NCBI GenBank assembly: GCA_021812985.1
Contig: JAKAMG010000013.1
Coordinates: 586-64,585 of the forward strand
Direction of reading: 5' to 3'
DNA length: 64,000 nt
Source of the DNA: Bacteroidota bacterium
Lineage (GTDB): Bacteria; Bacteroidota; Ignavibacteria; Kryptoniales; JAKASW01
A program made the position numbers and the translations under genes. The notes below the pieces were generated by a model. It had not been told where the DNA came from. It did no database searches and saw only the letters and a program-made list of their open reading frames with translations. Shown piece after piece: positions 43,672 through 56,775 of the stretch (position 1 is its first letter; every line of letters starts with the position of its first letter).

Positions 43672-44052
43672 TCATCGCGGAGACTTGAATTTAGACTTGC
43701 GGATAACGGTGGCGAGGGCATTCGCGGCGTTATATTCTTCCTCCCGCGAGGCATAAAGAAGCGTCACGTTCCCTTTCGCGAGCCGGTCGAGTATCTCACC
43801 AATGAAGGATGGATCGGCGTCGAGTTCTGATCGATACCTCTCCATGAACTCCGGCCATTTGGCCGGCTCGTGGTTGAACCACTTGCGTAGTTCTGTCGAC
43901 GGAGCTATTTCCTTGAGCCAGACGTCTAGGGCCGCCCTCTCCCTGGAAACGCCTCTGGGCCACAACCTTTCCACGAACACCCTGTAGCCGTCGTCTTTTG
44001 ATGGGGGCTGATATATCCTCTTCACCCTGAGCTCGCCTTTCATCACTCGCAC
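43672..44052 (-). CDS. DUF488 (YeaO-like) family protein
   Basis: About 123-126 aa. Carries VKRIYQPPSKDDGYRVFVERLWPRGVSRE...WLKEIAPSTELRKWFNHEP. Confidence 0.7.
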   Translation of the reverse strand: MRVMKGELRVKRIYQPPSKDDGYRVFVERLWPRGVSRERAALDVWLKEIAPSTELRKWFNHEPAKWPEFMERYRSELDADPSFIGEILDRLAKGNVTLLYASREEEYNAANALATVIRKSKFKSPR

Positions 44053-44094: not shown

Positions 44095-45912
44095 TCAGGA
44101 AGTCTGAAGCTTTCTTCCAGTTTCCTTTTTCGCGCTGAATTTCTTTTCGACAACCTCTGGGGGAAGAATTCCCTCCTCGGCAAGTTTTTTCAGACGAGCC
44201 GAGATTACCTGCGCTCGTCCCAGATAGCCGACCACCTTCCGCACATCGTCCCTGTTCACTACAGGAAGCCTGCCGATGTCATGATGCAGCATCCTGACAA
44301 CCGCATCATAAAGTGGCTCGCTCTGGAACGCGAGGACGAGGTCCTTCGCACCAGCCTCAAGAATACTCTTATCACCCGCTCCCGACCGCATCGCCCTTCG
44401 CACGTCCTCGTGAGTGATAATTCCAACGAGACGGCCATCGCCGTCCACAATCAGCACACCTTTATGCCGGTTCACATCAGAGTCACCGTGGGCTATTTTC
44501 TCTGAAAGCTCGCTGACCTTCATCTCCTGCCGGAGCGTCGCCACATCAGTGTCCATAACGTCCGACACAGGGACGCGTTTAAATATGTCAGCTTCATAAT
44601 CCTGAGGAATGAGGAGTCCCCTTCGGACAAGCTTCTCAGTCACGACGGAATTCTTGTACAGGACATACGCGACCCCTGAAGCTACAACACCGACCAGCAT
44701 GAGAGGAAGGACTGAATCGAAATTCCGGGTCATCTCGAGCGGGAAGATGATGAAGGCGAAGGTAGATCGCACAGAGGCGCCGAAGACAGCCCCCATCCCA
44801 ACAAGCGCGAAAGCGCCCGGTGATAGATCAGCACCGGGCACGATGCGATTCACAACCAGCGCGAACAAACCGCCGATTGCGGCACCTATCATGAAGACCG
44901 GCGCCAGTAGTCCTCCAGATGTCCTGGTGCCGAGTGAAAGAATCAATGCTGCAAACTTCGTGACGAGCAAAACCAGGAGAAATGACAACGTGAATTGGTT
45001 CGCGAGTATCGCGCCGATCGTATCGTAACCCGGACCGAAAATTCTTGGCACCAGGAATCCGAGCACTCCCACCCCCAAAGCACCTATTGAGGGGAGTATG
45101 TAGGGACTGATATGAAGTTTCTCAAACTGATCTTCCGTCCAATAGAGAGTCTTTATGAAGGACACAGCAGCTAATCCGCACAGCACTCCAAGTGCAACGT
45201 AGTAAGGGAGAGCGGAGGAAAATCTGAAGTCCAGAGAGCCGATCGGGAACATGGCGCCCGATTGCATTGTCTGGAAACGAACAGCGGTCGCCAGGCTGCT
45301 CGCGATCACGAGCGGAATGAACGAGCGGGTTCGGAACTCGAAGAGAAGAATTTCGATGGCCATGATGACTCCCGAAATGGGAGTCCCAAATGTGGCTGCC
45401 AGGCCTGCGGCGGAGCCGCAGGCCAGAAGTATGCGCCTTTCCGACTCGGTTGTCTTGAGAATTTGCCCGACGAAGGATCCGACGGCGCCGCCCGTTTGTA
45501 TGATAGGCCCCTCTGCGCCGAAAGGCCCGCCGGTACCGATGACAATGGCCGCGGAAAGGGGCTTCCAAATTGCCACCTTTCCGGGTATCCTGCTCTTATT
45601 CGTAACCACTGCCTCCAGAGCTTCCGGAAGTCCGTGTCCCTGAATTTGCTCGGTGCCGTACTTTGACATCAGTCCTACTAGCAGCCCCCCTATCACCGGC
45701 ATTAGTATTGCCAGATATCCGATCTGGGTGTTTACTTCGCTTACAAAATGAAACGAGACGACATGATAAAACACGATATTCGTAATCAACGCTATCAGAT
45801 GGTACAGTACAAACATGATGAGCCCTGTACCTACGCCTATTAGGGCCGCAAGCGTTGATATAAATAATAGTCTGGAGCCATTTTCTTCTGCTAACTGAGG
45901 CGCGCGTGACAT
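44095..45912 (-). CDS. ClC-family anion channel/antiporter with a C-terminal CBS pair
   Basis: 605 aa. ClC motifs GHGLPE (position of GSGIPE), GAEGP (position of GREGP, Glu retained) and GGLLAP (position of GxFxP). Two CBS-like repeats lie after about residue 440. Confidence 0.85.
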   Translation of the reverse strand: MSRAPQLAEENGSRLLFISTLAALIGVGTGLIMFVLYHLIALITNIVFYHVVSFHFVSEVNTQIGYLAILMPVIGGLLVGLMSKYGTEQIQGHGLPEALEAVVTNKSRIPGKVAIWKPLSAAIVIGTGGPFGAEGPIIQTGGAVGSFVGQILKTTESERRILLACGSAAGLAATFGTPISGVIMAIEILLFEFRTRSFIPLVIASSLATAVRFQTMQSGAMFPIGSLDFRFSSALPYYVALGVLCGLAAVSFIKTLYWTEDQFEKLHISPYILPSIGALGVGVLGFLVPRIFGPGYDTIGAILANQFTLSFLLVLLVTKFAALILSLGTRTSGGLLAPVFMIGAAIGGLFALVVNRIVPGADLSPGAFALVGMGAVFGASVRSTFAFIIFPLEMTRNFDSVLPLMLVGVVASGVAYVLYKNSVVTEKLVRRGLLIPQDYEADIFKRVPVSDVMDTDVATLRQEMKVSELSEKIAHGDSDVNRHKGVLIVDGDGRLVGIITHEDVRRAMRSGAGDKSILEAGAKDLVLAFQSEPLYDAVVRMLHHDIGRLPVVNRDDVRKVVGYLGRAQVISARLKKLAEEGILPPEVVEKKFSAKKETGRKLQTS

Positions 45913-45989: not shown

Positions 45990-46904
45990 TCATGCGGCGG
46001 CAAGGCCGTCAAAGGACTCCTTGAAAACCCTGGCCCTGTGTGAAGCTTGAAGAGTTCTGTTGATCATCGGGTAGAGAATGAGTTCCTCCTTCTTGTTGTG
46101 GACAGCCAGTTTGCCTATCAGCAGGTCTGTTCTCGACCTGAGCGATTCTTCATCAATGTCCTCTAAGGATGGAGATATGATCGAGACGATTTCCCTATGC
46201 TCTGAGATCATGACCTGGACTGGCCCCATTTGCCCCGGATTGGCGTGCTCCTCGAACGCCGGGAAGAGCACAGTCTCCTCCAGTTCGATATGCTTCAGGA
46301 GCTGTCCCCTCATTCTTGAATAGTAATGCCTCGCCGCGTCCAGATGGACTCCCGGCATCCTCATGCGGGACATATTGAGATCTATCCTTTTATGATCGAG
46401 TTCGAATAGCGACCAGATGTCGCTCCTTTTCTTCTCGCCCTCGACGCGATGCGCTTCGGTGATGAGGTTCTCCATCTCGCCTTCGGACATCTTGTTCGAC
46501 AACCGCGGCATAAGGATGTTCTCTTCTTCGAGAAAATGAGCATTGAGGAGTTCCATGAACCTTGCCGATTCTGAAATGATCAACGATGCTCCCCCTGTCC
46601 CGAGGGCATTCCCTATCGACTCGAGCAGTTCCTTTATCTCCCTGTGTTCCCGAACCATTTTGTCTACAAACTCAGCATTGGCGTCCGCATTATAAAGAGT
46701 CGACTCCTCGGCCTCCGCATGCGCGAGAAGAAACTCTCCGCAATACGAGACAAGGAGTGACGCTTCGGCGGGATCAGCCTTTGTCCTTTCCACCAGTTCC
46801 CTTATCGTGCCAATTAATTTCTCGTGATGCGCGTGCAATTTTTCCATCGTTGTCATAGTTCCTCCAGTTTTAAATATTCGTGAACGGTCGGGATCATGCG
46901 TCAA
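45990..46904 (-). CDS. Tandem hemerythrin-like (HHE cation-binding) domain protein
   Basis: 304 aa. Two repeats carry H...HxxxEE...H patterns (LAHAEAEESTLY, VREHREIKEL, NAHFLEEENILMP; KHIELEETVLFPAF, ISEHREIVSI, HNKKEELILYP). ATGA overlap with the SCO gene. Confidence 0.7.
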   Translation of the reverse strand: MTHDPDRSRIFKTGGTMTTMEKLHAHHEKLIGTIRELVERTKADPAEASLLVSYCGEFLLAHAEAEESTLYNADANAEFVDKMVREHREIKELLESIGNALGTGGASLIISESARFMELLNAHFLEEENILMPRLSNKMSEGEMENLITEAHRVEGEKKRSDIWSLFELDHKRIDLNMSRMRMPGVHLDAARHYYSRMRGQLLKHIELEETVLFPAFEEHANPGQMGPVQVMISEHREIVSIISPSLEDIDEESLRSRTDLLIGKLAVHNKKEELILYPMINRTLQASHRARVFKESFDGLAAA

Positions 46905-47590
46905 CCTCTTCTGCGGGCGCGCTCTGCCTTTTTAATAGCATTAACAACGTCGCCGATAGGTTTGTTCAGCCCTGTGTGCCTGTAAATTATGTCGCCGGAT
47001 TCATCCAGCACCGCGATCAAGCTCGAGTGCTGGAAGTCTCCGTCGGCTTTCTTTTCGAATTCCACCCCGAGCTCAGCTGCAAGTGTCCTGTCATCTCCTT
47101 CGCTTCCCGTCAGGAGCAGCCAATCCGTGCTATCGATTTCTTCTGATTCGGCAAGCTTGCGCAAGGCTGCGGGAGAATCCCTTTCAGGATCGAAGGATAC
47201 AAGGACAAACCCCACTCTATCCCTCAATCCTGACGGGAGAGCACGGGAGATCCTCTTCATGTCGTTAATCGTCAGTGGGCAGGCATAAGTACAGTGTGAG
47301 TAAAACATCGCGATGACACGCACCTTCCCTTCAAGACCTGACAGCTTCATCCTTTCTCCGTTTTGGTCGGTCCATTGAGAATTCACGTGATATATGGAAT
47401 TGCCGCTGATACCTCCCTCAGTCCCCGGCGCGATGCAGCATGAATCTCTCTGCAGCCCATACCGGTTTCCCAATTCAGGAGCAGACCGATCTGCGGCTCC
47501 CTCATTGCTGCGGCTCTGATGATGCCCGGCAATCATGATGAATGACGCCATCAACGCGGCGGCCAGAAGAGCAATTATTGGATTTCTCAC
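46901..47590 (-). CDS. SCO1/SenC-family copper chaperone (thioredoxin fold)
   Basis: Start proposed at GTG 47590, which has a GGGAGGA RBS and a GTGA overlap with the nirV stop. This gives the membrane anchor MRNPIIALLAAALMASFIMIAG. CxxxC motif FYSHCTYACP. Confidence 0.75.
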   Translation of the reverse strand: MRNPIIALLAAALMASFIMIAGHHQSRSNEGAADRSAPELGNRYGLQRDSCCIAPGTEGGISGNSIYHVNSQWTDQNGERMKLSGLEGKVRVIAMFYSHCTYACPLTINDMKRISRALPSGLRDRVGFVLVSFDPERDSPAALRKLAESEEIDSTDWLLLTGSEGDDRTLAAELGVEFEKKADGDFQHSSLIAVLDESGDIIYRHTGLNKPIGDVVNAIKKAERARRRG

Positions 47591-48408
47591 TTCATCCTCC
47601 CTTTGATTTGATGGACATCTATCGCCCCCCTGAAGCCGACATTCGGAAGGCAATATTCAGGCTTGAGTCCGCTCATAAACGCGTACCTTAGGAAAGCAGC
47701 ATAATCTGTCGGGTCGCTGAAACCCGATGACGCGCCGCCGCACGACGACATGGCCGAGGAACCATCCGCGCTCCCGGCAAGGAGCACGCTGCTGTAGTCC
47801 TCCACCCACTCCCAGAGTCTCTCGCTCGTGAGTGATCGGGGAAACTCCCCGGCGGTCGGGACGGTCAAGCGGTCTGCCTTCCCCTTCTCATGGCCGTACC
47901 ATGCAGTCAATTCCTTTCTCAGCGCTTCCTCATCCCCCGAAACATGTCTGCCGATTCCGGACGCGTAGTCCCATTCGTTCAGAGTCGGCAGCCTCTTTCC
48001 CCTCCACTCGCAGTAGGCCCTTGCAGCGTACCATGAGACATAAGTCACGGGATCGTTCGGTGAGGCGTGCACCCCGAGACTCAGGTCTCCGCTCCAGTTT
48101 ATAAGGTACTCCCTGTCAGCGAATATGCGTTTCACCCTCGAACGCCTCCATTCAGGATTTCCCTTGACGAACCGGAGATATTCCGCGTTTGTCACGGGAC
48201 TCCTGTCCAGAAGAAAGGATTTCACCACGACCTCGACAGATCTCCCCGCCTCCCTGGCGAACTGGACGAAGCTCCCGCCATTGATTAGGACCATATTGCC
48301 GTACGACCGTTTTGCAGCGTTCCCCTCTGCAACCGAGACACCCGAAGCCAGGAGGACCGCGAGTACGGCCGCAAAGAGGCGAGGGACGTCTAAGACTTTA
48401 CTCTTCAT
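47587..48408 (-). CDS. nirV: NirV-like formylglycine-generating-enzyme (SUMF1) family protein
   Basis: 273 aa with a signal peptide. FGE-type motifs LDRSPVTNAEYLRFV and YVSWYAARAYCEWRGKRLPTLNEWDYA. ATGA overlap with nirK. The position directly after nirK is the classical nirV location. Confidence 0.72.
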   Translation of the reverse strand: MKSKVLDVPRLFAAVLAVLLASGVSVAEGNAAKRSYGNMVLINGGSFVQFAREAGRSVEVVVKSFLLDRSPVTNAEYLRFVKGNPEWRRSRVKRIFADREYLINWSGDLSLGVHASPNDPVTYVSWYAARAYCEWRGKRLPTLNEWDYASGIGRHVSGDEEALRKELTAWYGHEKGKADRLTVPTAGEFPRSLTSERLWEWVEDYSSVLLAGSADGSSAMSSCGGASSGFSDPTDYAAFLRYAFMSGLKPEYCLPNVGFRGAIDVHQIKGRMK

Positions 48409-49922
48409 TTCGCTTTCGCATCGTCGCTGGCCAGGGCGCCCTTCTGCCTGACCGTTTCCACTTCCTCCACGCTCACAGGACTCATATGATTGCCAAAATG
48501 TGTCCTGACGTATGTCAGGACGGCGGCTATCTGCTTATCGTTCAGTGGTTGAGGGGGCATCGTGTTATTAAACGGCTTCTTGTTCACGACGAGTGGTCCT
48601 GAGTGACCGTGCATCACGAAGTCAATCGCTCTGGACTTGTTCGCGCTCAGGAAGTCGGAGCCGGCCAGTGGCGGGAAGACATTCGGTATTCCCCCGGCGT
48701 TGGCCTGGTGACAGGCGATACAAGTCCTTCCGAAGATGTGGTCTCCCGTCTCATCGGCGGATTCGGCGACGTTCTGATCTTTCGCGGCCGATTCCATGGC
48801 GCCGGCTTGCTGATCGTCGCCCTGGAATGAAGCTTCCCCCGGCATGCCCTGCATCTGCGCCTCACCCTCCCCAAGATATATTTCGTCAGCCTGCCGACCC
48901 GAGAATAACTCAGGGTTGGGTTCGCCTCCGATGATGAGCTGACCCACGGCTCCCTTGTTGAAGGCTCTGAAGATCGAGTGGTCCACGATAGTGTAAGTGC
49001 CCGGAACCTCCGCCTTGAATTCAACCATTGACGCTCCTCCCGCCGGGATGAGCGTAGTCTGTATGTCGTGGGCGGTGATTGTCGAGCCTCCCTCGCCGTA
49101 GACGTTGTCAAACATTTCGCCGATAACATGGAACGACGAGATGAGATTCGGTCCTATGTTTCCAACATACATCCTGACCTTCTGCCCGACCTCCGCCTTC
49201 AGGGCGTTGTCTCCAGTCAGAGCCCCGACGGAGCCGTTGAAGACTACGTACGTCGGCCTTTCGTCGAGCGCTTTCTGAAGGTCGAACTGCTGAAGCCCCG
49301 GGTCTCCGTAATTGCCTGTCGTGTAGAACTCGCTCTGCATTATGTAGAACTCCTTGTCCACATGAGGAAATCCTTCTCTGGGCTGGACAAGTATCAACCC
49401 GTACATTCCGTTCGCGATGTGCATCGGAACCGGCTGGGTGGCACAGTGATAAATGAAAAGACCGGCATGCATTGCCCGGAAGGAGAATACCGAAGTATGT
49501 CCCGGCATCGTGACGGAAGACGCCGCGCCGCCTCCCGGACCTATCACCGCATGCATGTCAATGTTGTGCGACATCATGTTCGATGGGTCGTTGCTGAGAT
49601 GAATTTCCACGAGATCCCCCTGTCGGACGCGTATCATGGGTCCCGGGACCGTTCCGTTAAATGTCCAGAAAGTATATTGAACTCCGTCGGCGAGCCTGCC
49701 GATCTTCTCCTTCGTGTAGAGATGGACAATCACCTTTGTAGGATAATTCCGCGTGATGGGAGGAGGAACATTGGGGGCTGTCGTCAGAACGGCCTCTTCT
49801 GATCCCCTGATTTCGTTCGAGTATCCCGGTTGGCAGCCCGTATAGATTATAGAACCGGCGGCAAGAAGCAGTATGAGTGCTGAGGCATATATTATGGCGA
49901 ATTTCTTGTGTCTGATTTTCAT
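48405..49922 (-). CDS. nirK: Copper-containing nitrite reductase, AniA-like (class II) lipoprotein with a C-terminal c-type cytochrome domain
   Basis: 505 aa. Lipobox YTGC. Cu ligand regions SHNIDMHAV and YHCATQPVPMHIANGMYG. C-terminal heme-binding CIACH followed by ..NNTMPP. Confidence 0.88.
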   Translation of the reverse strand: MKIRHKKFAIIYASALILLLAAGSIIYTGCQPGYSNEIRGSEEAVLTTAPNVPPPITRNYPTKVIVHLYTKEKIGRLADGVQYTFWTFNGTVPGPMIRVRQGDLVEIHLSNDPSNMMSHNIDMHAVIGPGGGAASSVTMPGHTSVFSFRAMHAGLFIYHCATQPVPMHIANGMYGLILVQPREGFPHVDKEFYIMQSEFYTTGNYGDPGLQQFDLQKALDERPTYVVFNGSVGALTGDNALKAEVGQKVRMYVGNIGPNLISSFHVIGEMFDNVYGEGGSTITAHDIQTTLIPAGGASMVEFKAEVPGTYTIVDHSIFRAFNKGAVGQLIIGGEPNPELFSGRQADEIYLGEGEAQMQGMPGEASFQGDDQQAGAMESAAKDQNVAESADETGDHIFGRTCIACHQANAGGIPNVFPPLAGSDFLSANKSRAIDFVMHGHSGPLVVNKKPFNNTMPPQPLNDKQIAAVLTYVRTHFGNHMSPVSVEEVETVRQKGALASDDAKAK

Positions 49923-50087
49923 TTCATTTTTCCCCTTCGCTTTCGCGGGAGCCCGGACGGTCAGGCAGCCGCGAGGATCGCATTAAAATATTCAGATTAA
50001 TTAGTCCGAAATATGTATAAAAAAATGTGTCGAATCCCGCATTTGTCACTGGCGCGGTTTGCCATGGATATTGAATCGTTAGTAAAC

Positions 50088-50582
50088 TCAGAATTCCGGC
50101 CTGTGGCCTGCTCTCTCGACCGCTCGCCTTGTTATTTCAAGTATGCCATCCCGCTGATTATGCGGCAGCACCGGGACCTCAGGAAAAGCTTTCAGCTGGT
50201 CTATGACTTTAGCAGTCTCTTCTTCGGAAAGCGAGTCGAGTTCAGCGTACACTCCCCCAACGCCTTCCTCTGACGCGTTATGCGCCTGAAGTATGGAGCG
50301 GATAGTGCTTATGATGGGACGCGAAGGCGGAGGGACGAGCAGGGCCACCAAAGCTCCATGGTCAAGACGGAGCTTGTCGAAGCCTTCCACTTTCAGCCCC
50401 TCTTTGAGCCGTGCAATCGCGGGAAAAAGAATCTTCTCTTCCATACCGATGTGCCTCAAAAGTCCCTTGCGAAATTCCGCGTAGGCCGGCACGTCAATGG
50501 CGTCCGGTTGTGCGACGGCCTTCTCGAGGTATCCATCGAGTCGGAGATGATCGCTTGAGAGGTACTCGTAGATCCAGCGCAT
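50088..50582 (-). CDS. Hemerythrin-like domain protein
   Basis: 164 aa. Carries DHLRLDGYL, LRHIGMEEKILFPA and LDHGAL. It is 26 nt downstream of the DUF59 gene. Confidence 0.65.
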   Translation of the reverse strand: MRWIYEYLSSDHLRLDGYLEKAVAQPDAIDVPAYAEFRKGLLRHIGMEEKILFPAIARLKEGLKVEGFDKLRLDHGALVALLVPPPSRPIISTIRSILQAHNASEEGVGGVYAELDSLSEEETAKVIDQLKAFPEVPVLPHNQRDGILEITRRAVERAGHRPEF

Positions 50583-50608
50583 TTAAATATCCTTCGATTT
50601 TCCTGAGA

Positions 50609-50917
50609 TCACTTGTAACCCAGTTGCTCTCTGGCCCAGTCGGTCATCATATCGGGCGTCCAGCGCGGCTCCCATACTATTTCAAGATTCACGCGCCTGG
50701 TAATATCGAGCACCGATAGAACATTTGTAACATAAGTGCTGATGCTTTGACTAAGTGGACATCCCGGGGCGGTAAGCGTCATCCTGACTTTTATCTCGGC
50801 ACCTGTTACGTCCACATCGTACACCAGGCCCAAATTTACAATATCGATCCCAATTTCCGGGTCGTGGACCTCTTTCAAGGCGTCCATCACCTCTTCTTTG
50901 GTTATTACCACGGTCAA
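50609..50917 (-). CDS. DUF59 / MIP18-family Fe-S cluster assembly protein (SufT/PaaD-like)
   Basis: About 102 aa from TTG 50917 (TTGA overlap with the upstream stop). GTG 50911 and ATG 50887 are alternative starts. Sequence ITKEEVMDALKEVHDPEIGIDIVNLGLVYDVDV...LTAPGCPL. The track's 216-aa version overlaps the upstream gene and is rejected. Confidence 0.75.
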   Translation of the reverse strand: MTVVITKEEVMDALKEVHDPEIGIDIVNLGLVYDVDVTGAEIKVRMTLTAPGCPLSQSISTYVTNVLSVLDITRRVNLEIVWEPRWTPDMMTDWAREQLGYK

Positions 50918-52188
50918 CTCCTGAAGATTTTCAATTGGACGTACGCATATATGATTGCTGAAATCGTCATCGCCGAGCATCCGACGAGAAATAGAGGCAT
51001 GTACGAGAAGACGAGCGCTCCCGAGGCAACAGCGACGGCCGCGCTCCAAAGATAAAGTTGGACATAAGAGAGAGTCTGGTCGACCATCTCGTGCAACGAC
51101 GGTACGTCGGTCAAACCCACCATTGAGCTGTACTTCCGCACCCAGACCAAAAAGGGCGCGATCTTGAGCATTTGTCCCAGAATCAGAGAACCGATGAATC
51201 CGAAGAAGAAGAGGAAACCGACAGAGAGCGCGATATCGGCCGACGGAGTGTTCTTCCACGGACCCAGCGCTATCGAAGCGGCAACCGCAAATGCGGCCAG
51301 GCCGAGGTAAACAAACGAAACCACGGTCTGTCTCAGACCCGCGTCGAGTTTTCTCCGCACCCTCTTCCTGAATATCTGAGCCGCCTGGACGAGGAACGCA
51401 AAGACTCCCGCCACCATTACCAGCGAGAAGACATCTGACAACTCCGTATTGTCTCCCAAAGTAATCGCCAGTCCATACCCGACGATGCCGACGAGTAACA
51501 GGAAGTAAGCGGCCCAGCCGAAGCCGCGCGGGAAATTGTACGACAGCGAGAACATGGGGACAAGCTGGTACACGGCTCCGAATATGATCATAGTGACGAA
51601 CCCGACAAGGACTACGTGGGCGTGGACTTTCAGAATCTCCAGATGATTAACCATCAGGAAGCCATACTGCAGGTTCATCGCCAGGAGAAGCCCGATCGAG
51701 ACGGCGACGAGAAGAAAAACGATCCCCGTCAGGAAATGAGCGGCGGTGATGTTCCACTCCTTCACCTTAGCCATGCTCATCAGTACGTTGATTATGAATG
51801 CGATCATGCCAAGGAAGGCGATCGAGGCGAAGGTCACAAAGCCCGGGCTTATGTTGAACTCATAGAAGCCGTATATCATTCCCAGCGACCCGGCGGTCAG
51901 GACAAAATACTGGAGATACGCGAGCGGTATGCTGTACACGCGAACTCTGAATACCACGGGTATAAGCTGATACATCGCCCCGGATATGGACATCGTGATC
52001 CATCCTAACGCAAGGGTGTGAACTATGGCGAGGATATGCGGCTGGAAATAGAAACCCTGGAAGTCGGAGTAGTTAATCAGAGTCAGCACCGTACCCGCCA
52101 GGAAGAAAAGGATGGAGGTAATGAAATACGTGGCGACCAGCCTGAAGGGAGGGGTGAGTTTTGCCGTGCTAGCCATGTCGAAGGACAT
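50914..52188 (-). CDS. 12-TM membrane protein built from three 134-aa repeats, His-bearing. Heme-copper-oxidase-subunit-I-like architecture; function unknown.
   Basis: 424 aa. The motif G[WF][IV]xxxIxGxxxx[LI]xP occurs with its first G at residues 62, 196 and 330. Conserved His lie 5 residues before the motif in repeats 1 and 2 (H57, H191), with additional H51, H182 and H189. There is no signal peptide. Confidence 0.5.
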   Translation of the reverse strand: MSFDMASTAKLTPPFRLVATYFITSILFFLAGTVLTLINYSDFQGFYFQPHILAIVHTLALGWITMSISGAMYQLIPVVFRVRVYSIPLAYLQYFVLTAGSLGMIYGFYEFNISPGFVTFASIAFLGMIAFIINVLMSMAKVKEWNITAAHFLTGIVFLLVAVSIGLLLAMNLQYGFLMVNHLEILKVHAHVVLVGFVTMIIFGAVYQLVPMFSLSYNFPRGFGWAAYFLLLVGIVGYGLAITLGDNTELSDVFSLVMVAGVFAFLVQAAQIFRKRVRRKLDAGLRQTVVSFVYLGLAAFAVAASIALGPWKNTPSADIALSVGFLFFFGFIGSLILGQMLKIAPFLVWVRKYSSMVGLTDVPSLHEMVDQTLSYVQLYLWSAAVAVASGALVFSYMPLFLVGCSAMTISAIIYAYVQLKIFRS

Positions 52189-52189
52189 G

Positions 52190-53014
52190 TTACCGTCCGC
52201 CCGCCGCGCGTCGTATCACGACCTTGTAATGATTCTCCCCGACCTTATTGGACACCGCCTCGAAGCCTCCGTCGTGAAGCTTGTCGTAGAGGAGGACAGG
52301 CTCCCTGTGATGGTGGACCAGCAGAATCTCATTCGCTCCAAGGGCTTTGAGGGCCTTCAGTATCCGCATCATAGGTTCGGGCGGCTCCAGTCCTCTCACA
52401 TCCATCTCGACAACTTTCAAATCGCCGACCACATCCTTACCAGTCGCATCAAGTTTCTTGGTATCACGTTTCGATTCCGCTGCCCCATCGGTACGCTTGA
52501 ACAACACATGGAATACCCCATCCCTGGATTCTGTAGCGTGCACAAATCCTTTTTTTCCCAGTACGTCGTAAAGGGGAATTGGTTCAAAGCTGTTGACTAG
52601 ATGGAGGATTCTTCCCCTTTCAATTCTCTTCGCCGTGCGCATAATCTTCTGGAGCGGATCGTTGTTCACCGCAATGTCGTCTCTGACGTCCAGCGTCTCC
52701 TGGATTTGCGACTCGTCATAGTCAAACTCCTCCGCAAAATCGTCGCCCCATTCGACCTCAGATTCCAGCCTGCCACGTTCGGTTCCATCTTCCGTGCTCT
52801 CGCCTATATCCGCTCTAAGCGCGGTGATCAGATATTCCGGATCTACTCCTCCGACCCTTGCCGCGTCGGAGATACTCACCCTGCGGGCGATAGTCCTGCG
52901 CAGAAATTTATTCTCGAGTTTCCTGAAGTGCGGAGATACTCTTATGAAAGAGTCCAATAGCTCAGGATGCTCGTCCAGAAGCTTTCCTACAAGTGTGTTC
53001 TCATCTATCTTCAT
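52190..53014 (-). CDS. DUF1858 + 2x DUF2249 fusion protein
   Basis: 274 aa. The N-terminus LVGKLLDEHPELLDSFIRVSPHFRKLENKFLRRTIARRVSISDAARVGGVDPEYLITAL fits the DUF1858 pattern. Two DUF2249-like units follow (LDVRDDIAVNNDPLQKIMRTAKRIERGRILHLVNSFEPIPLY and MDVRGLEPPEPMMRILKALKALGANEILLVHHHREPVLLY). Confidence 0.6.
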   Translation of the reverse strand: MKIDENTLVGKLLDEHPELLDSFIRVSPHFRKLENKFLRRTIARRVSISDAARVGGVDPEYLITALRADIGESTEDGTERGRLESEVEWGDDFAEEFDYDESQIQETLDVRDDIAVNNDPLQKIMRTAKRIERGRILHLVNSFEPIPLYDVLGKKGFVHATESRDGVFHVLFKRTDGAAESKRDTKKLDATGKDVVGDLKVVEMDVRGLEPPEPMMRILKALKALGANEILLVHHHREPVLLYDKLHDGGFEAVSNKVGENHYKVVIRRAAGGR

Positions 53015-53061
53015 TTCTTCTCACCCTCTGATCGGCGGCCTAACCAGCCTCCGTGCCATGA

Positions 53062-53197
53062 CGGTTCATCCGTTCGTAACTTCAAAGGCTCACTTCACTT
53101 CCGATGGCAGTGTCTCCCCCGAGCCACTCACTGAACTGAAAGTTGCGGAAGAGGGCGAGCTTGCTTCTCACCGCAAAAGACGAAGTCGGATGAACCG
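53062..53197. repeat. 11-bp perfect inverted repeat (CGGTTCATCCG / CGGATGAACCG) enclosing 114 nt in an intergenic gap
   Basis: Arms at 53062-53072 and 53187-53197. A nested 6-bp inverted repeat TTGCGG/CCGCAA lies at 53143-53148 and 53171-53176. Confidence 0.75.
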
Positions 53198-53254
53198 CTT
53201 TCCATGCAGGCTTCTTTCCCGACATGGCGGCACGGACGCAAATCATAGCCCGAT

Positions 53255-53497
53255 CTACCTGGTCTTGGTGATTAGTACTCTCCAGACATCGGGGCCCTGT
53301 TCGAGGTATTCCCAATTAAAACGACCTGGCTTCTCGAAGTTAAACTCGTAGTAAAGCGGCTTCGGGTCGTGGTCGTTAATCAACGTCATGCTCTGGCCCG
53401 GGCTCAATTTCTCGAATGTCGCGTGAATTGTCGGGTGCTTTTCCCTAGGCAATATGGGCCTGACGTCCAAATCTATCGAACTGCTGCTGTCTGTCAT
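53255..53497 (-). CDS. DUF2249 domain protein
   Basis: 80 aa from ATG 53497, which has an AAGGAGA RBS 7 nt upstream. The track start at 53542 lies only 5 nt from the regulatory palindrome. Sequence LDVRPILPREKHPTIHATFEKLSPGQSMTLINDHDPKPLYYEF. Confidence 0.65.
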   Translation of the reverse strand: MTDSSSSIDLDVRPILPREKHPTIHATFEKLSPGQSMTLINDHDPKPLYYEFNFEKPGRFNWEYLEQGPDVWRVLITKTR

Positions 53498-53546
53498 TTT
53501 AATTCTCCTTTCAGTGAACAAGCTATGGAAGGACCTTGCCACGCAC

Positions 53547-53560
53547 CTTGACTTTGGTCA
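53547..53560. promoter_or_regulatory. CRP/FNR-family box TTGAC-tttg-GTCAA (serves the minus-strand DUF2249 operon)
   Basis: Perfect 5-4-5 palindrome whose centre is 57 nt upstream of the ATG at 53497. Confidence 0.5.
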
Positions 53561-53611
53561 ATTCCCGGAGATTCGAAGACATGCGCCCCGGAGCCAGGCC
53601 TGAAAACGAGT

Positions 53612-53631
53612 CGACTTGACCGAAGTCAAGT
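53612..53631. promoter_or_regulatory. CRP/FNR-family box GACTTGAC-cgaa-GTCAAGTC (serves qNOR)
   Basis: Perfect 8-4-8 palindrome centred about 85 nt upstream of the norB ATG. A -10-like TAGATT lies at 53651-53656, consistent with a class II (-41.5) arrangement. Confidence 0.6.
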
Positions 53632-53706
53632 CCTTTGGGAGGCCAAACGTTTAGATTTCAGATGAATCTATCCGCAATTCTAAATCAAATATTAGGAGAA
53701 ACACAA

Positions 53707-55995
53707 ATGGGCAAAGACAATTCAGAAAAACTATCACCATGGTGGAAACACTCCATCGTTCTGATTATGATCGCGGCTTTCAGCGTACTGATTTTTGTGG
53801 CCGTAAGGAGCTACACGGACGCGCCTCCGATACCGAACAAAGTCACTGACAGCAAGGGGCAGACGATCTTTACTTCCGACGACATAGAACACGGGCAGGA
53901 GGTATTCCTGAAGTACGGGCTGATGGAGGATGGAACACTTCTTGGACACGGCGCATACCTGGGGCCGGACTACTCTGCCGAATATCTTCACGTTGAAGCC
54001 GTCAGCGTCCAAAAAGAGCTGGCCGCTAAAAAGTACTCAATTCCATACGACAGCCTCACCGAGGACCAGAAGAACAGCATAATAGCGGACGTACAATCTA
54101 TGCTTCACGAGAACCACTACGATAAGTCGACAGGTACACTCGTCCTAACGGACGCCGAAGCGGCCGCGTACCAACTTGAGCTTCAAAACTGGAGCGACTA
54201 TTTCTCACAACCCGACCGCGCCCCGGGTCTTCCCCAGAATTTCATTAAGAATCCGGTCGAGCTTAAGGAACTCACATCTTTTTTCGCATGGGCAGCCTGG
54301 GCGGCGGTTACTAACCGCCCCGGAAAAGCATACTCATACACGAACAACTGGCCTTTTGACAAGCTGGCCGGCAATGGACCGACTAGTTCCACCATAATAT
54401 GGAGCGCCCTCAGCCTCGTTGCTCTTCTCGGAATGACGGGGCTCATTCTCTTCGTGTTCGGCAAGTTTGATTATCTCGGTTGGAAATCGGGGACCGTTGA
54501 GCACATGAACGAAACGAGGCGCCTGCCACCGACTGACAGCCAGAAGGCCTTGTTGAAATACTTCCTCGTCGTTGGCGCCTTGTTTCTCCTTCAGACTCTC
54601 GCAGGCGGCGCGCTGGCACACTACAGGGCGGAGCCGTTCGGGTTCTACGGCATCCCGCTCGAGAAGTGGCTCCCATTCAATGTGATAAGGACATGGCATC
54701 TCCAGCTGGCGATCTTCTGGGTGGCAATGTCATTCGTAGCGGGCGGGCTTTTCCTTCCGCCACTCATCAGCAGTTCTGAGCCGAAAGGACAAAAATTCTG
54801 GGTGAATTTCCTCTTCGGCGCCGTGGTTATCGTGGCCATCGGAAGTCTGTTCGGCGAGTATCTCGGCATCAACCAGCTTCTCGGGAAACTCTGGTACTAT
54901 TTCGGAATGCAGGGCTGGGAATACCTAGAGCTGGGAAGGGCCTGGCAATTGCTCCTGATCGTCGGCCTTCTTATCTGGCTCGTGCTGGTATTCCGCGCTC
55001 TCAGACCCGCAATGCGGGATGAATCGAGAAAGGAACTGAGCTCACTCTTCCTTTACTCGGCCGTGGCTATTCCGCTTTTCTATCTTCCCGCCCTCTTTTT
55101 TGGTCCGACGACCAATTTCACGGTAGCTGACAACTGGCGGTTCTGGATAATACATCTTTGGGTCGAAGGCTTCTTCGAGTTGTTCGCGACAGTCATGGTA
55201 GCGGTAATCTTTTACCAGCTCGGACTCGTGCGCGCCACATCCGCCGCTCGAGTAGTTTACCTCGACGCGATACTCTACCTGGGGAGCGGAATTGTCGGGA
55301 CCGGCCATCACTGGTACTGGACTGGCCAAAGCGACATCACTATGGCACTGGGCGCCATGTTCTCAGCGATGGAAGTCGTGCCTCTTACGCTTCTGACGCT
55401 GGACGCATGGGACTTCATCCGCCTGACAAGGAAGCACCCGTCTGACAACAGCCCTCATCCGGCACTGGAACAGAAGTGGGCTTTCTACTTCCTCATGGCG
55501 GTCGGATTCTGGAATTTTCTCGGCGCAGGCGTGTTCGGCTTCCTGATCAACCTCCCGATCGTGAGCTACTACGAAGTTGGAACAATGCTGACCCTTAACC
55601 ACGGTCACGCCGCGATGATGGGCGTGTTTGGAATGCTGGCTCTCGGCATAATGATGTACTCTCTCCGGACCCTTTCAACCGACGAAGTCTGGAAGAGAAA
55701 CGAGAAATACGTACGTGTCGGGTTCTGGGGGCTGAACTCAGGCCTCATGCTGATGGTGTTGACAGACATGTTTCCCGCCGGTGTACTCCAACTGGCCGAT
55801 GTTGTTAACAACGGATACTGGCACGCCAGGGAACTCGGCTTCATCGATACGGGATTGTTTCACTTCCTCGAGTGGCTTCGTATCGTGGCAGACACTGTCT
55901 TCATAGCGGCAGGGTCGCTCCCCATATTGATATTCGTCGTGAAGGTTTATCGTGCGAGAAAAGAAATGTGGAAGGCCATCCCGGCGCACGATTAA
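53707..55995 (+). CDS. norB: Quinol-dependent nitric oxide reductase (qNOR, NorB/NorZ large single subunit)
   Basis: 762 aa from ATG 53707 (AGGAGA RBS; the track start is 53635). An N-terminal extension with one TM and a periplasmic domain lacks a CxxCH motif. HCO core motifs HLWVEGFFE, GTGHHWYW and NHGHAAMMG. Confidence 0.9.
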   Translation: MGKDNSEKLSPWWKHSIVLIMIAAFSVLIFVAVRSYTDAPPIPNKVTDSKGQTIFTSDDIEHGQEVFLKYGLMEDGTLLGHGAYLGPDYSAEYLHVEAVSVQKELAAKKYSIPYDSLTEDQKNSIIADVQSMLHENHYDKSTGTLVLTDAEAAAYQLELQNWSDYFSQPDRAPGLPQNFIKNPVELKELTSFFAWAAWAAVTNRPGKAYSYTNNWPFDKLAGNGPTSSTIIWSALSLVALLGMTGLILFVFGKFDYLGWKSGTVEHMNETRRLPPTDSQKALLKYFLVVGALFLLQTLAGGALAHYRAEPFGFYGIPLEKWLPFNVIRTWHLQLAIFWVAMSFVAGGLFLPPLISSSEPKGQKFWVNFLFGAVVIVAIGSLFGEYLGINQLLGKLWYYFGMQGWEYLELGRAWQLLLIVGLLIWLVLVFRALRPAMRDESRKELSSLFLYSAVAIPLFYLPALFFGPTTNFTVADNWRFWIIHLWVEGFFELFATVMVAVIFYQLGLVRATSAARVVYLDAILYLGSGIVGTGHHWYWTGQSDITMALGAMFSAMEVVPLTLLTLDAWDFIRLTRKHPSDNSPHPALEQKWAFYFLMAVGFWNFLGAGVFGFLINLPIVSYYEVGTMLTLNHGHAAMMGVFGMLALGIMMYSLRTLSTDEVWKRNEKYVRVGFWGLNSGLMLMVLTDMFPAGVLQLADVVNNGYWHARELGFIDTGLFHFLEWLRIVADTVFIAAGSLPILIFVVKVYRARKEMWKAIPAHD

Positions 55996-56012
55996 GATTC
56001 CCCCCTCCACAA

Positions 56013-56050
56013 GAAGCCGTACGGTCAGCACGACGTACGGCTTCACTTTT
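56013..56050 (+). terminator. Rho-independent terminator after norB
   Basis: GAAGCCGTACG-gtcagcacga-CGTACGGCTTC, a perfect 11-bp stem followed by acTTTTat. Confidence 0.65.
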
Positions 56051-56088
56051 ATGACGCGCACCTGCGCTGCGGCTGCACAGACCAGCAG

Positions 56089-56775
56089 CTATTCGGCCAC
56101 CTTCCTCAGTTCCCTCAAATCCAGCACGGTTATCTCGCCGCGAACTTCCCGGACTATCTTCCGGTCCTTCAGCTTTCTAAGATTTCTTGATAGTGTCTCT
56201 ATCGCGACTCCTAGCTGGCCTGCCAGGTCCTTCTTGCTCACGTTAAGAGAAAATGCCGGCTTCGCAGTGCCGATCGATCCGTTCAGATTCACCTCGTTCA
56301 ATATGTAGAGGGCGAGCCTCTTTTCCACGTTTACGGAAAGCTGTGCCACCTTCTTGTTAAGTTCCATCAGCCGCGTCGCGAAAGCTTCGGAAATCTTGAT
56401 GGCCAGCGAAGGGCTATCTTCCATGAGTCGCCTGAACTCGACTTTCGGCACGTAATAGAGTATCGAGTCCTCCATGGTCTGAGCGCAGGCGGGATATGCG
56501 TCAGAGTTCGTAAACAGAGGTGTCTCCGCGAAGCTTTTGTATGGCCGGAGTATGTGAAGAATCGTCTCGTCGCCTCCCGCGCTAAGCTTGAAGACTTTCA
56601 CTGATCCTTCGAGGATGATATAGAACCCCGCGAACTGGTCTCCCTCAAGAAAAATCATTCTCTCCCTTGCGAACGACTTCTTTCCGCCGATGCCCGACAC
56701 AAGCCTGAGCTCCGCCGGACTCAACTTCTCGAACAGCGGCGCCTTCTTCAGGAGCTCTTCTGTTTCTTCCCTCAT
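56089..56775 (-). CDS. CRP/FNR-family transcriptional regulator (Dnr/NnrR-like by context)
   Basis: 228 aa. cNMP-binding-type beta-barrel (IFLEGDQFAGFYIILEGSVKVFK). C-terminal HTH SKKDLAGQLGVAIETLSRNLRKLKD. There is no N-terminal Cys cluster, so it is not a classical O2-sensing Fnr. Confidence 0.85.
   Translation of the reverse strand: MREETEELLKKAPLFEKLSPAELRLVSGIGGKKSFARERMIFLEGDQFAGFYIILEGSVKVFKLSAGGDETILHILRPYKSFAETPLFTNSDAYPACAQTMEDSILYYVPKVEFRRLMEDSPSLAIKISEAFATRLMELNKKVAQLSVNVEKRLALYILNEVNLNGSIGTAKPAFSLNVSKKDLAGQLGVAIETLSRNLRKLKDRKIVREVRGEITVLDLRELRKVAE

Follow-up and report, generated by a model that had tools for sequence, protein, structure and literature searches.

What do the genes that accompany the reductases of a denitrification island contribute, and do they belong together? 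This question is raised by a 64-kilobase (kb) stretch of contig JAKAMG010000013.1 from a Kryptoniales bacterium (hereafter the window, meaning the whole stretch that was analyzed). Positions 45990-56775 hold a fairly ordinary denitrification gene island, with a copper nitrite reductase (NirK) and a quinol nitric oxide (NO) reductase (qNOR). Between and beside these enzymes lie genes for DUF2249, DUF1858, DUF59, hemerythrin-like and membrane proteins. Genes were called from the open reading frame (ORF) list and from Pfam and NCBIfam scans, and the island was compared with related loci. We found that four of the accessory genes form one unit of fixed order, present in about 80 genomes of Ignavibacteria/Kryptoniota and in Thermus, Rhizobium etli and Sphingobacterium. 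They encode a DUF2249 protein (DrpA-like), a DUF1858 protein with two DUF2249 domains (DrpB-like), an oxidase-like membrane protein and a DUF59 protein. The unit usually has a DNR-type box upstream, its membrane protein and DUF59 are recurrently fused, and one fusion joins DUF2249 to RIC.

A four-gene unit of fixed order

The comparative set comprised 80 genome loci, mostly from Ignavibacteria/Kryptoniota, that were retrieved with a profile of the membrane protein. Across this set, the order DUF2249, DUF1858-2x DUF2249, membrane protein, DUF59 was near-invariant. The gene for the membrane protein was adjoined by the DrpB-like gene in 72 of 75 loci and by the DUF59 gene in 68 of 76, and the DrpA-like gene lay upstream in 58 of 73. 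A 151-amino-acid (aa) protein consisting of a single oxidase-like unit continued the series in 54/74 loci, a 2x[4Fe-4S] ferredoxin was present in about half, and a pyridine-nucleotide-disulfide oxidoreductase sometimes accompanied the unit in Ignavibacteria.

The gene context was quantified for the 33 loci that have 9 kb or more to each side. Near the unit, NirK was found in 6, qNOR in 7, either of the two in 10, nosZ in 10, and any of the three in 19 of these loci. A 67%-identical relative had the arrangement of the window without NirV and SCO. In Melioribacteraceae the unit follows narGHJI, a true RIC, a hemerythrin and an Rrf2 regulator, and in Sphingobacterium it follows the nos cluster. 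Thermus thermophilus SG0.5JP17-16 (pTHTHE1601, L092) has the order narCGHJIK, drpA, drpB, single-unit oxidase-like gene, protoglobin, membrane protein (hhalign E 6e-41) and DUF59. In R. etli p42f the order is norECBQD, hemN, DUF2249, membrane protein (E 2e-27), 2x DUF2249, DUF59, nnrS, nirK, nirV and nnrR, and in Haloferax larsenii the gene for the membrane protein directly follows nirK, next to qNOR. The four-gene unit therefore goes with respiration of N-oxides and anaerobic respiration at large (genes nar, nos, nirK/nor, even nuo) and not with nirK/norB specifically, and hemerythrins, NirV and SCO are lineage-variable additions. The initial annotation had made co-conservation of the accessory genes with nirK/norB a test of its proposal. 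Adjacency was indeed seen in R. etli, in H. larsenii and in about one third of the Ignavibacteria loci, so that the refuting outcome named there did not occur; what is co-conserved is the four-gene unit, and the association was with N-oxide respiration generally.

Two variants of the arrangement were seen outside Ignavibacteria. In Sphingobacterium (L089, 8215-9138), the gene for a 307-aa DUF2249-ScdA_N-hemerythrin protein with RIC/YtfE architecture immediately precedes those for DrpB, the membrane protein and DUF59, followed by nrdDG. In Campylobacterota, a 107-110-aa protein occupies the place of DrpA/DrpB (Sulfurospirillum deleyianum L088, 9664-9996; Aliarcobacter butzleri plasmid L095, 5667-5990); the Sulfurospirillum copy had no Pfam match, and the Aliarcobacter copy is annotated as hypothetical and lies between plasmid transposases.

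The unit shares its promoter region with qNOR. Perfect TTGAC-N4-GTCAA sites occur only twice in the window, and both lie inside the 209-nucleotide (nt) divergent promoter. In related loci, the near-invariant motif (C/T)TGACTTAAGTCAA was found upstream of drpA in 47/58 cases, mostly at a distance of 40-80 nt, against a background of 0.23 sites per 220 nt. The immediate upstream neighbor of drpA was a CRP-family gene in 45/68 loci. Because of the box and this neighbor, we regard the predicted membership of the accessory genes in a DNR-type regulon as conserved. A near-invariant 14-mer, CTGACTTAAGTCAA, recurs about 40-80 nt upstream of drpA homologues in dozens of Ignavibacteria genomes (L010-L079) and may serve as the operator of the neighboring CRP-family regulator. 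The regulator encoded in the window combines a cNMP-like sensor domain with HTH_Crp_2 (Pfam) and carries an ETLSR recognition helix. Its closest solved relative is DNR of Pseudomonas aeruginosa (3dkw, E 3e-21), ahead of FNR (E 7e-11), and its translation contains a single cysteine and no FNR-type cysteine cluster. Judged by its domains, the lacking cluster, the closest relative and the type of box, it is predicted to be a regulator of the DNR/NnrR type.

The initial annotation had stated that the accessory set has no assigned role. While no biochemical function has been established, this is only partly right because the genes are already recognized companions of denitrification, with precedents in DrpA/DrpB (PMC6282519), in COG4309 beside nor (PMC1274295) and in the heme-copper oxidase homology (HCOH) proteins for which PMC11218638 cites Pei et al. 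(2014). Rodionov et al. (2005) predicted joint transcription of COG4309 (DUF2249) with the nor genes of rhizobia and the norB of beta-proteobacteria, within NnrR/NsrR regulons, and judged it relevant to NO reductase function (PMC1274295). Chahlafi et al. (2018) reported that deletions of drpA or drpB in Thermus deregulate nar and dnr expression, that DrpB is membrane-attached, and that the drpAB double mutant contains normal amounts of nitrate reductase protein with little activity (PMC6282519). In Haloferax, denitrifying conditions raise the expression of DUF2249 genes by 3-8.6 log2-fold, and an Fe-S carrier NTPase fused to DUF2249 is also encoded there (PMC11218638). A DUF1858 gene of Bradyrhizobium beside nnrR and nirK is strongly NnrR-dependent (PMC6710368). 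The response to nitrite or NO that the initial annotation required of these genes is thus paralleled by homologues that are denitrification-induced or NnrR/DnrT-dependent (PMC11218638, PMC6710368, PMC6282519).

Two of these systems can be compared with the window gene by gene. In Thermus, drpA and drpB are likewise adjacent and in the same order, a DUF2249 gene followed by DUF1858 plus 2x DUF2249; a membrane protein and DUF59 follow a few genes downstream. They depend on a Dnr-type activator, and control by a DNR-type regulator is predicted for the window from its box. Differences are that the Thermus genes follow nar rather than accompanying nirK/qNOR, that hemerythrins are missing, and that a single-unit oxidase-like protein and a protoglobin are encoded between drpB and the membrane protein. 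Thermus DrpA is reported to be periplasmic; the 80-aa DrpA-like product of the window has no signal peptide. In the published Thermus work, drpAB is presented as a bicistronic operon for nitrate sensing, and the genes further downstream are not discussed (PMC6282519). In L092 (8765-12563), the genes after drpAB are tightly packed, with overlaps of 1-4 nt; therefore, the Thermus unit is larger than the two genes studied. The R. etli p42f cluster also has a DUF2249 protein, the membrane protein, 2x DUF2249 and DUF59 between nor and nirK, with predicted control by a CRP/FNR-family NO regulator. It differs in that the gene for the membrane protein separates the two DUF2249 genes, DUF1858 is missing from the DrpB counterpart, a cNOR with NorQD replaces qNOR, NnrS and NnrU are present, and hemerythrins are absent.

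Oxidase-like membrane protein and the proteins encoded with it

The membrane protein matched no Pfam or NCBIfam family above the curated cut-off. The initial annotation had noticed a triple repeat in its sequence, and this repeat is real: the protein contains three 4-helix units that are mutually homologous in hhalign profile comparisons (E 8e-14, 2e-13 and 2.5e-10), which explains the observation. The family profile matched transmembrane helices (TM) 9-12 of the cbb3 oxidase subunit CcoN (E 1.4e-8). The AlphaFold2 model (pLDDT 94.7) had its best Foldseek match in subunit N of cbb3 oxidase (3mk7_A, TM-score 0.80), with cNOR NorB next. From the model and the profiles, the protein is predicted to be a three-fold pseudo-symmetric, 12-helix homologue of heme-copper oxidase subunit I. 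The loop charges (11 versus 1 lysine and arginine residues) indicate an N-in/C-in topology. H57 and H189 are the only invariant histidines in alignments of 22 and 106 homologues. Each lies about seven residues in from the outer end of its helix, TM2 or TM6, and the topology therefore places both near the outer face. By analogy, the two residues are probably the ligands of a single bis-His heme. Of the canonical six metal-ligand histidines (low-spin heme, high-spin heme and CuB/FeB), only two have counterparts, and the third repeat contains no histidine.

Two assignments of the membrane protein were rejected. It is not a catalytic oxidase or NO reductase, with only two conserved histidines and a COX1 Pfam score of 17 bits, below the cut-off of 34.8, and it is not NnrS, with no PF05940 match at E <= 0.01; R. 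etli has both genes side by side. The 151-aa single-unit relative from Ignavibacteria loci gave a weak NnrS match (PF05940, E 0.002). A search at E <= 1e-30 among 1.84 billion clusters gave 1,270 representatives of the family. Its members are often mislabelled as cbb3 oxidase subunits.

A group of HCOH proteins that includes NnrS was reportedly described computationally by Pei, Li, Kinch and Grishin in 2014, with three 4-helix units, two conserved histidines and best similarity to TM9-12 of heme-copper oxidases and NO reductases. The membrane protein appears to fit the definition of this group. It presumably shares with these proteins the 12 helices in three units, the similarity of TM9-12 to CcoN, the two histidines, the context of denitrification or NO detoxification, and the DUF2249 neighbors. 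It differs from them in not belonging to the NnrS family itself and in having no curated Pfam or NCBIfam model. A link between the oxidase superfamily and DUF2249 is ascribed to Pei et al. in the Haloferax study (PMC11218638).

The DUF59 protein scored 70.9 bits against PF01883 (cut-off 23.5) and carries a GC53P motif, with C53 invariant in 68/68 homologues. The membrane protein is fused to a C-terminal DUF59 in at least six separate clusters (P0118, P0262, P0270, P0279, P0295, P0327; 522-540 aa), where DUF59 comes to lie on the cytoplasmic side, at the C-terminal end of the membrane protein. SufT/DUF59 proteins aid Fe-S (iron-sulfur) maturation, and DUF59 has been described in fusion with DUF1858 as well as with P-loop NTPases of the Fe-S carrier type (PMC4982691). 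The window protein resembles SufT (Mashruwala et al. 2016, PMC4982691) in its single DUF59 domain and conserved cysteine. It differs in lying outside a suf operon (no suf genes were found near it), in scoring below both SufT cut-offs, and in being coupled, and in some clusters fused, to the membrane protein.

Conserved residues of the DrpA-like protein in 51 homologues are D11, R13, K20, H21, N41-D42-H43, P45, W62 and E66. The DrpB-like protein is 33% identical to Thermus DrpB over 95% of its length (tblastn), conserves H159 and the motifs PPEPM and HHREP, and has an AlphaFold2 model with three confident domains joined by two disordered linkers. The DUF2249 fold matched TusA, SirA and YeeD; the best match, a weak one, was YeeD docked on its membrane partner. 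A search for solved structures yielded none of DUF2249, and DUF1858 matched only 2fi0, a structural-genomics entry.

Hemerythrin-type di-iron proteins such as RIC/YtfE/ScdA, DnrN and NorA are encoded in NO-responsive regulons. The window hemerythrins share their domain, and relatives of the island carry a true RIC beside the module or fused to DUF2249. The two proteins differ from RIC/DnrN/NorA in lacking the ScdA_N domain and in falling far below the TIGR03652 and NF041614 cut-offs. They scored 18.8 and 36.2 bits against the RIC model TIGR03652 (cut-off 204.7), and 19-36 bits over the RIC, DnrN and PA2171 models (cut-offs 205-300). By these scores they are relatives, and not equivalogs, of the known proteins. 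The single hemerythrin is present in L091 and absent from L090, L008 and most Ignavibacteria loci. Hemerythrins were rejected as part of the conserved core, as they were seen in only a handful of the 80 loci.

The enzymes of the island were ordinary members of their families. NirK scored 367.9 bits against the equivalog model TIGR02376 (Cu_nitrite_red; cut-off 296.3), its residues 39-498 align end to end with the three-domain structure of RpNiR (3ziy, E 8e-162), and its translation contains the copper motif YHCATQPVPMHIANGM. Contiguous with the cupredoxin core, a C-terminal class I cytochrome c (PF00034, residues 392-474) carries a CIACH heme motif. From its sequence, NirK is assigned as a three-domain, cytochrome-c-fused copper nitrite reductase; it is probably a lipoprotein. 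The single 762-aa product encoded on the plus strand contains PF22085 (a heme-less cytochrome-c-like N-terminal domain) and PF00115 (COX1), aligns over residues 14-751 with Geobacillus stearothermophilus qNOR (3ayf, E 2e-185), and is accordingly predicted to be a quinol-dependent NO reductase. The comparison of NirK with three-domain enzymes (RpNiR 3ziy, PhNiR 2zoo) and of qNOR with the Geobacillus enzyme, with full-length alignments to 3ziy and 3ayf, revealed no notable difference. The earlier statement that NirK and qNOR account for the conversion of nitrite via NO to nitrous oxide (N2O) is accepted, and the window contributes no new enzyme chemistry. The proposal that NirV and SCO are maturation factors of the copper enzyme is plausible. 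The nirK-nirV pair is also found in R. etli and Ignavibacteria, and SCO has a CTYAC (CxxxC) motif at residue 121.

Layout of the island

All eleven genes described in the initial annotation were recovered with the same minus-strand order, coordinates and domains, and qNOR diverges from the minus-strand run with the CRP/FNR regulator convergent after it (Table 1). Direct reading of the sequence also reproduced four of the junctions: drpB and the membrane-protein gene meet at TAAcATG, the latter and DUF59 at TTGA, NirK and NirV at ATGA, and NirV and SCO at GTGA. The junction of SCO with the double hemerythrin is TTGA and not, as had been given, ATGA. SCO probably starts with the GTG at 47590 (public gene calls give 229 aa). 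The double hemerythrin probably starts with the ATG at 46856 behind a GGAGG sequence, in the region that public gene callers also chose.

Table 1. Genes, spacers and regulator boxes of the island (window positions; ORF, open reading frame; RBS, ribosome-binding site)
Feature	Position	Strand	Evidence and remarks
DNR-like CRP/FNR regulator	56089-56775	-	Pfam; 3dkw best solved relative
qNOR, 762 aa	53707-55995	+	NorB_cytochrome_c-like and COX1 Pfam; true ATG 53707
Second DNR/FNR-type box, TTGACCGAAGTCAA	53616-53629		center about 85 nt upstream of qNOR ATG
DNR/FNR-type box, TTGACTTTGGTCAA	53548-53561		exact palindrome; center about 57 nt upstream of drpA-like ATG
drpA-like, DUF2249	53255-53497	-	PF10006, E 2e-31; AGGAG RBS before ATG
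Spacer, 240 nt	53015-53254	-	two nested long-range stems
drpB-like, DUF1858 + 2x DUF2249, 274 aa	52190-53014	-	Pfam
12-helix membrane protein (predicted), 424 aa	50914-52188	-	alignments, AlphaFold2 model, Foldseek
DUF59 (FeS_assembly_P), about 100 aa	50609-50917	-	PF01883, E 1e-19
Single-domain hemerythrin-like di-iron protein, 164 aa	50088-50582	-	PF01814, E 1e-6; H-x3-E/D motifs
Spacer, 165 nt	49923-50087	-	between hemerythrin and NirK
NirK + cytochrome c	48405-49922	-	TIGR02376, 368 bits
NirV, FGE-sulfatase/SUMF1-type domain and signal peptide	47587-48408	-	PF03781, E 3e-25; ATGA overlap with nirK
SCO1/SenC, membrane-anchored	46901-47590 (ORF to 47653)	-	PF02630, E 2e-19; GTGA overlap
Double hemerythrin	45990-46856 (ORF to 46904)	-	PF01814, two stretches, E 9e-28

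The bacterium that carries the island is uncultured. The same locus is present in the metagenome-assembled genomes GCA_027400595.1 and GCA_027347225.1, and the nearest named relatives are Candidatus Kryptoniota, with 55-60% identity of the membrane protein. Searches with tblastn for narG, nosZ, RIC, Rrf2, NnrS, a single-unit HCOH protein and ferredoxin found none of them in the window. Counts from a sigma-70 promoter and terminator scan of the operon did not clearly exceed the shuffled expectation, and the lineage may use other promoter types.

The 240-nt spacer between the drpA-like and drpB-like genes had been described as structured. It folds better than shuffled sequences (minimum free energy z = -2.7), and inverted repeats form two nested stems (53047-57 with 53229-39, and 53062-72 with 53187-97). 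Both stems are kept, with compensatory changes, in the 70%-identical relative L090 (8930-9173), a comparison of only two sequences. Other relatives (L091, L008) have 41-43 nt at the same place. The spacer is possibly a structured RNA element. A 54-aa protein in the spacer (public gene call, 53082-53246) was rejected, as the L090 counterpart shows no protein similarity and the DNA alignment contains frame-breaking indels. Rfam gave no match in the spacer or the promoter at E <= 1, and an exact-pattern scan of metagenome contigs for the spacer element found one unrelated coding-region match and no further copy.

Several neighbors of the island recur elsewhere. A ClC-type channel with a CBS pair (44095-45912, minus strand) lies 77 nt downstream of the double hemerythrin and has the same position in L091; in L066, ClC flanks CRP-NirK-NirV-SCO and the module. 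It may be an anion channel, perhaps for nitrite or nitrate, that belongs to the island. A DUF488 protein is encoded near the module in the window (43672-44052, minus strand), in L007 (2521-3063) and in L090 (5782-6390), the latter two being close relatives, and in 8 Ignavibacteria loci. Large genes for PAS-rich hybrid histidine kinases/response regulators (57102-59888 and 60482-62431, minus strand) flank the island beside the DNR-like regulator, and the same neighbors appear in public gene calls.

Possible roles of the unit

The explanation that we consider best, and to which we give an even chance of being correct, is that the island is one regulon for the conversion of nitrite to N2O, in which a membrane-anchored unit protects or matures iron and Fe-S centers. 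The DNR-like regulator would act on the two palindromic boxes, one arm driving qNOR and the other the ten-gene operon. On the periplasmic side, the cytochrome-c-fused NirK would produce NO, with NirV and SCO serving its copper centers, and the promoter-proximal four-gene unit would form the cytoplasmic and membrane side. The oxidase-like protein may be the membrane scaffold, possibly with an NO or redox site based on heme, as in the distantly related NnrS, while DUF59 and the TusA-fold proteins DrpA and DrpB would dock on its cytoplasmic face. The identities, folds, order and fusions of the genes and the conserved regulator box were observed; complex formation, heme binding and the iron/Fe-S function are inferred. 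Such a complex would protect, repair or load iron or Fe-S centers of respiratory enzymes during NO production. The hemerythrins, as additions of this lineage, may contribute iron and NO handling of the RIC/NorA kind.

The initial annotation had suggested an NO-sensing or a metal-centre-repair module, and both are plausible. We favor care of Fe-S and iron centers because of the DUF59 fusion, the DUF2249-RIC fusion, the neighboring genes and the loss of activity without loss of protein in the Thermus double mutant; ferredoxin, the single-unit oxidase-like protein, Rrf2 and RIC are frequent neighbors of the unit. Signaling is the main rival, which we regard as possible though rather doubtful. In that case, DrpA and DrpB would sense N-oxides or the redox state and modulate the DNR-type regulator by contact, with the oxidase-like heme protein as a transmembrane or NO sensor and DUF59 as an auxiliary. 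This would agree with the altered dnrST and nar expression in Thermus drpA and drpB deletions, the constitutive expression upon loss of DrpB, and the membrane attachment of DrpB (PMC6282519, PMC7694296). The protoglobin within the Thermus cluster, a sensor-type heme domain, would also fit, as would the conserved His, Asp and Arg of DrpA, which could bind a small ligand, and the CRP-family gene immediately upstream in 45/68 loci. However, a regulator gene is to be expected beside an operon that bears the regulator's box, and no regulator lies near the module in L090 and Sulfurospirillum. Moreover, none of the four proteins contains a DNA-binding, kinase, cyclase or other output domain, both the recurrent DUF59-membrane protein fusion and the DUF2249-RIC fusion point to metal-center chemistry, and the double mutant of Thermus retains the enzyme protein while its activity is lost (PMC6282519).

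Two further explanations assign the unit to particular enzymes. As a dedicated assembly factor, it would supply qNOR or NirK with non-heme iron, heme or copper and replace NorQD, which qNOR operons lack. The predicted co-transcription of COG4309 with nor/norB (PMC1274295), the place of the membrane-protein gene after nirK and beside qNOR in H. larsenii, the position of the module between nor and nirK in R. etli, and its divergence from qNOR in the window are all consistent with this idea. We nevertheless consider it unlikely, as NirK or qNOR was near only 10/33 loci, with nosZ instead in 10, the module follows nar in Thermus and Melioribacteraceae and nos in Sphingobacterium and adjoins nuo in L090, and R. 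etli retains NorQD as well. Finally, the oxidase-like protein, alone or with its single-unit paralogue and the ferredoxin, could be a catalytic NO or O2 reductase or a quinol-oxidizing electron-transfer enzyme of a new kind. The complete oxidase subunit I fold, the best structural matches to cbb3 oxidase and cNOR NorB, and the companions in Ignavibacteria (the 151-aa homologue in 54/74 loci, the ferredoxin and sometimes the oxidoreductase) speak for catalysis. Yet only two of the six ligand histidines are present, a conserved CuB/FeB-type cluster is missing, the third repeat is devoid of histidine, the window has a complete qNOR anyway, and it encodes neither the single-unit partner nor the ferredoxin, which makes a catalytic role highly improbable.

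Several points also weigh against a role in iron and Fe-S care. NirK and qNOR themselves contain no Fe-S clusters, and we know of no biochemical activity for DUF2249, DUF1858 or the oxidase-like membrane protein. The case for heme binding by the latter consists of two histidines and an analogy. The homologue alignments contain no conserved cysteine in DrpA or DrpB, and therefore direct carriage of Fe-S or sulfur by these proteins is unlikely. The DUF59 protein remained below the SufT equivalog cut-offs (TIGR02945, 101.9 versus 143.4; TIGR03406, 86.7 versus 202.6). DUF1858 aligned in register with ScdA_N, but this match of a profile against a single sequence was weak (E 0.023, probability 2%). 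In L090, the four genes adjoin nuo, and neither an N-oxide gene nor a regulator lies within 10 kb; of the four proteins, Campylobacterota keep the membrane protein and DUF59 only. Chahlafi et al. interpreted their Thermus genetics in terms of nitrate sensing and repression and reported a periplasmic DrpA (PMC6282519).

Going one step beyond protection or maturation of metal centers, we tentatively propose a previously undescribed membrane complex that consists of DrpA, DrpB, DUF59 and the oxidase-fold heme protein. In it, a degenerate oxidase scaffold might serve as an NO- or redox-gated platform that links the membrane with the TusA-fold and DUF59 proteins of the cytoplasm and, during denitrification, repairs or delivers iron and Fe-S centers or gates the DNR regulator. 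If so, DrpAB of Thermus would be part of a six-gene unit and not a two-gene nitrate sensor. Experimental handles are provided by the fixed gene order, the DUF59 fusions, the DUF2249-RIC fusion, the conserved DNR-type box and the full unit downstream of Thermus drpAB. The value of the island is that it points to a widespread four-gene companion of N-oxide respiration. At least four bacterial phyla, and haloarchaea as well, have some or all of these uncharacterized genes next to reductases for nitrate, nitrite, NO or N2O. Should protection or maturation of metal centers under NO be the task of the unit, it would affect how well denitrifiers tolerate their own toxic intermediate and, hence, the release of NO and N2O.

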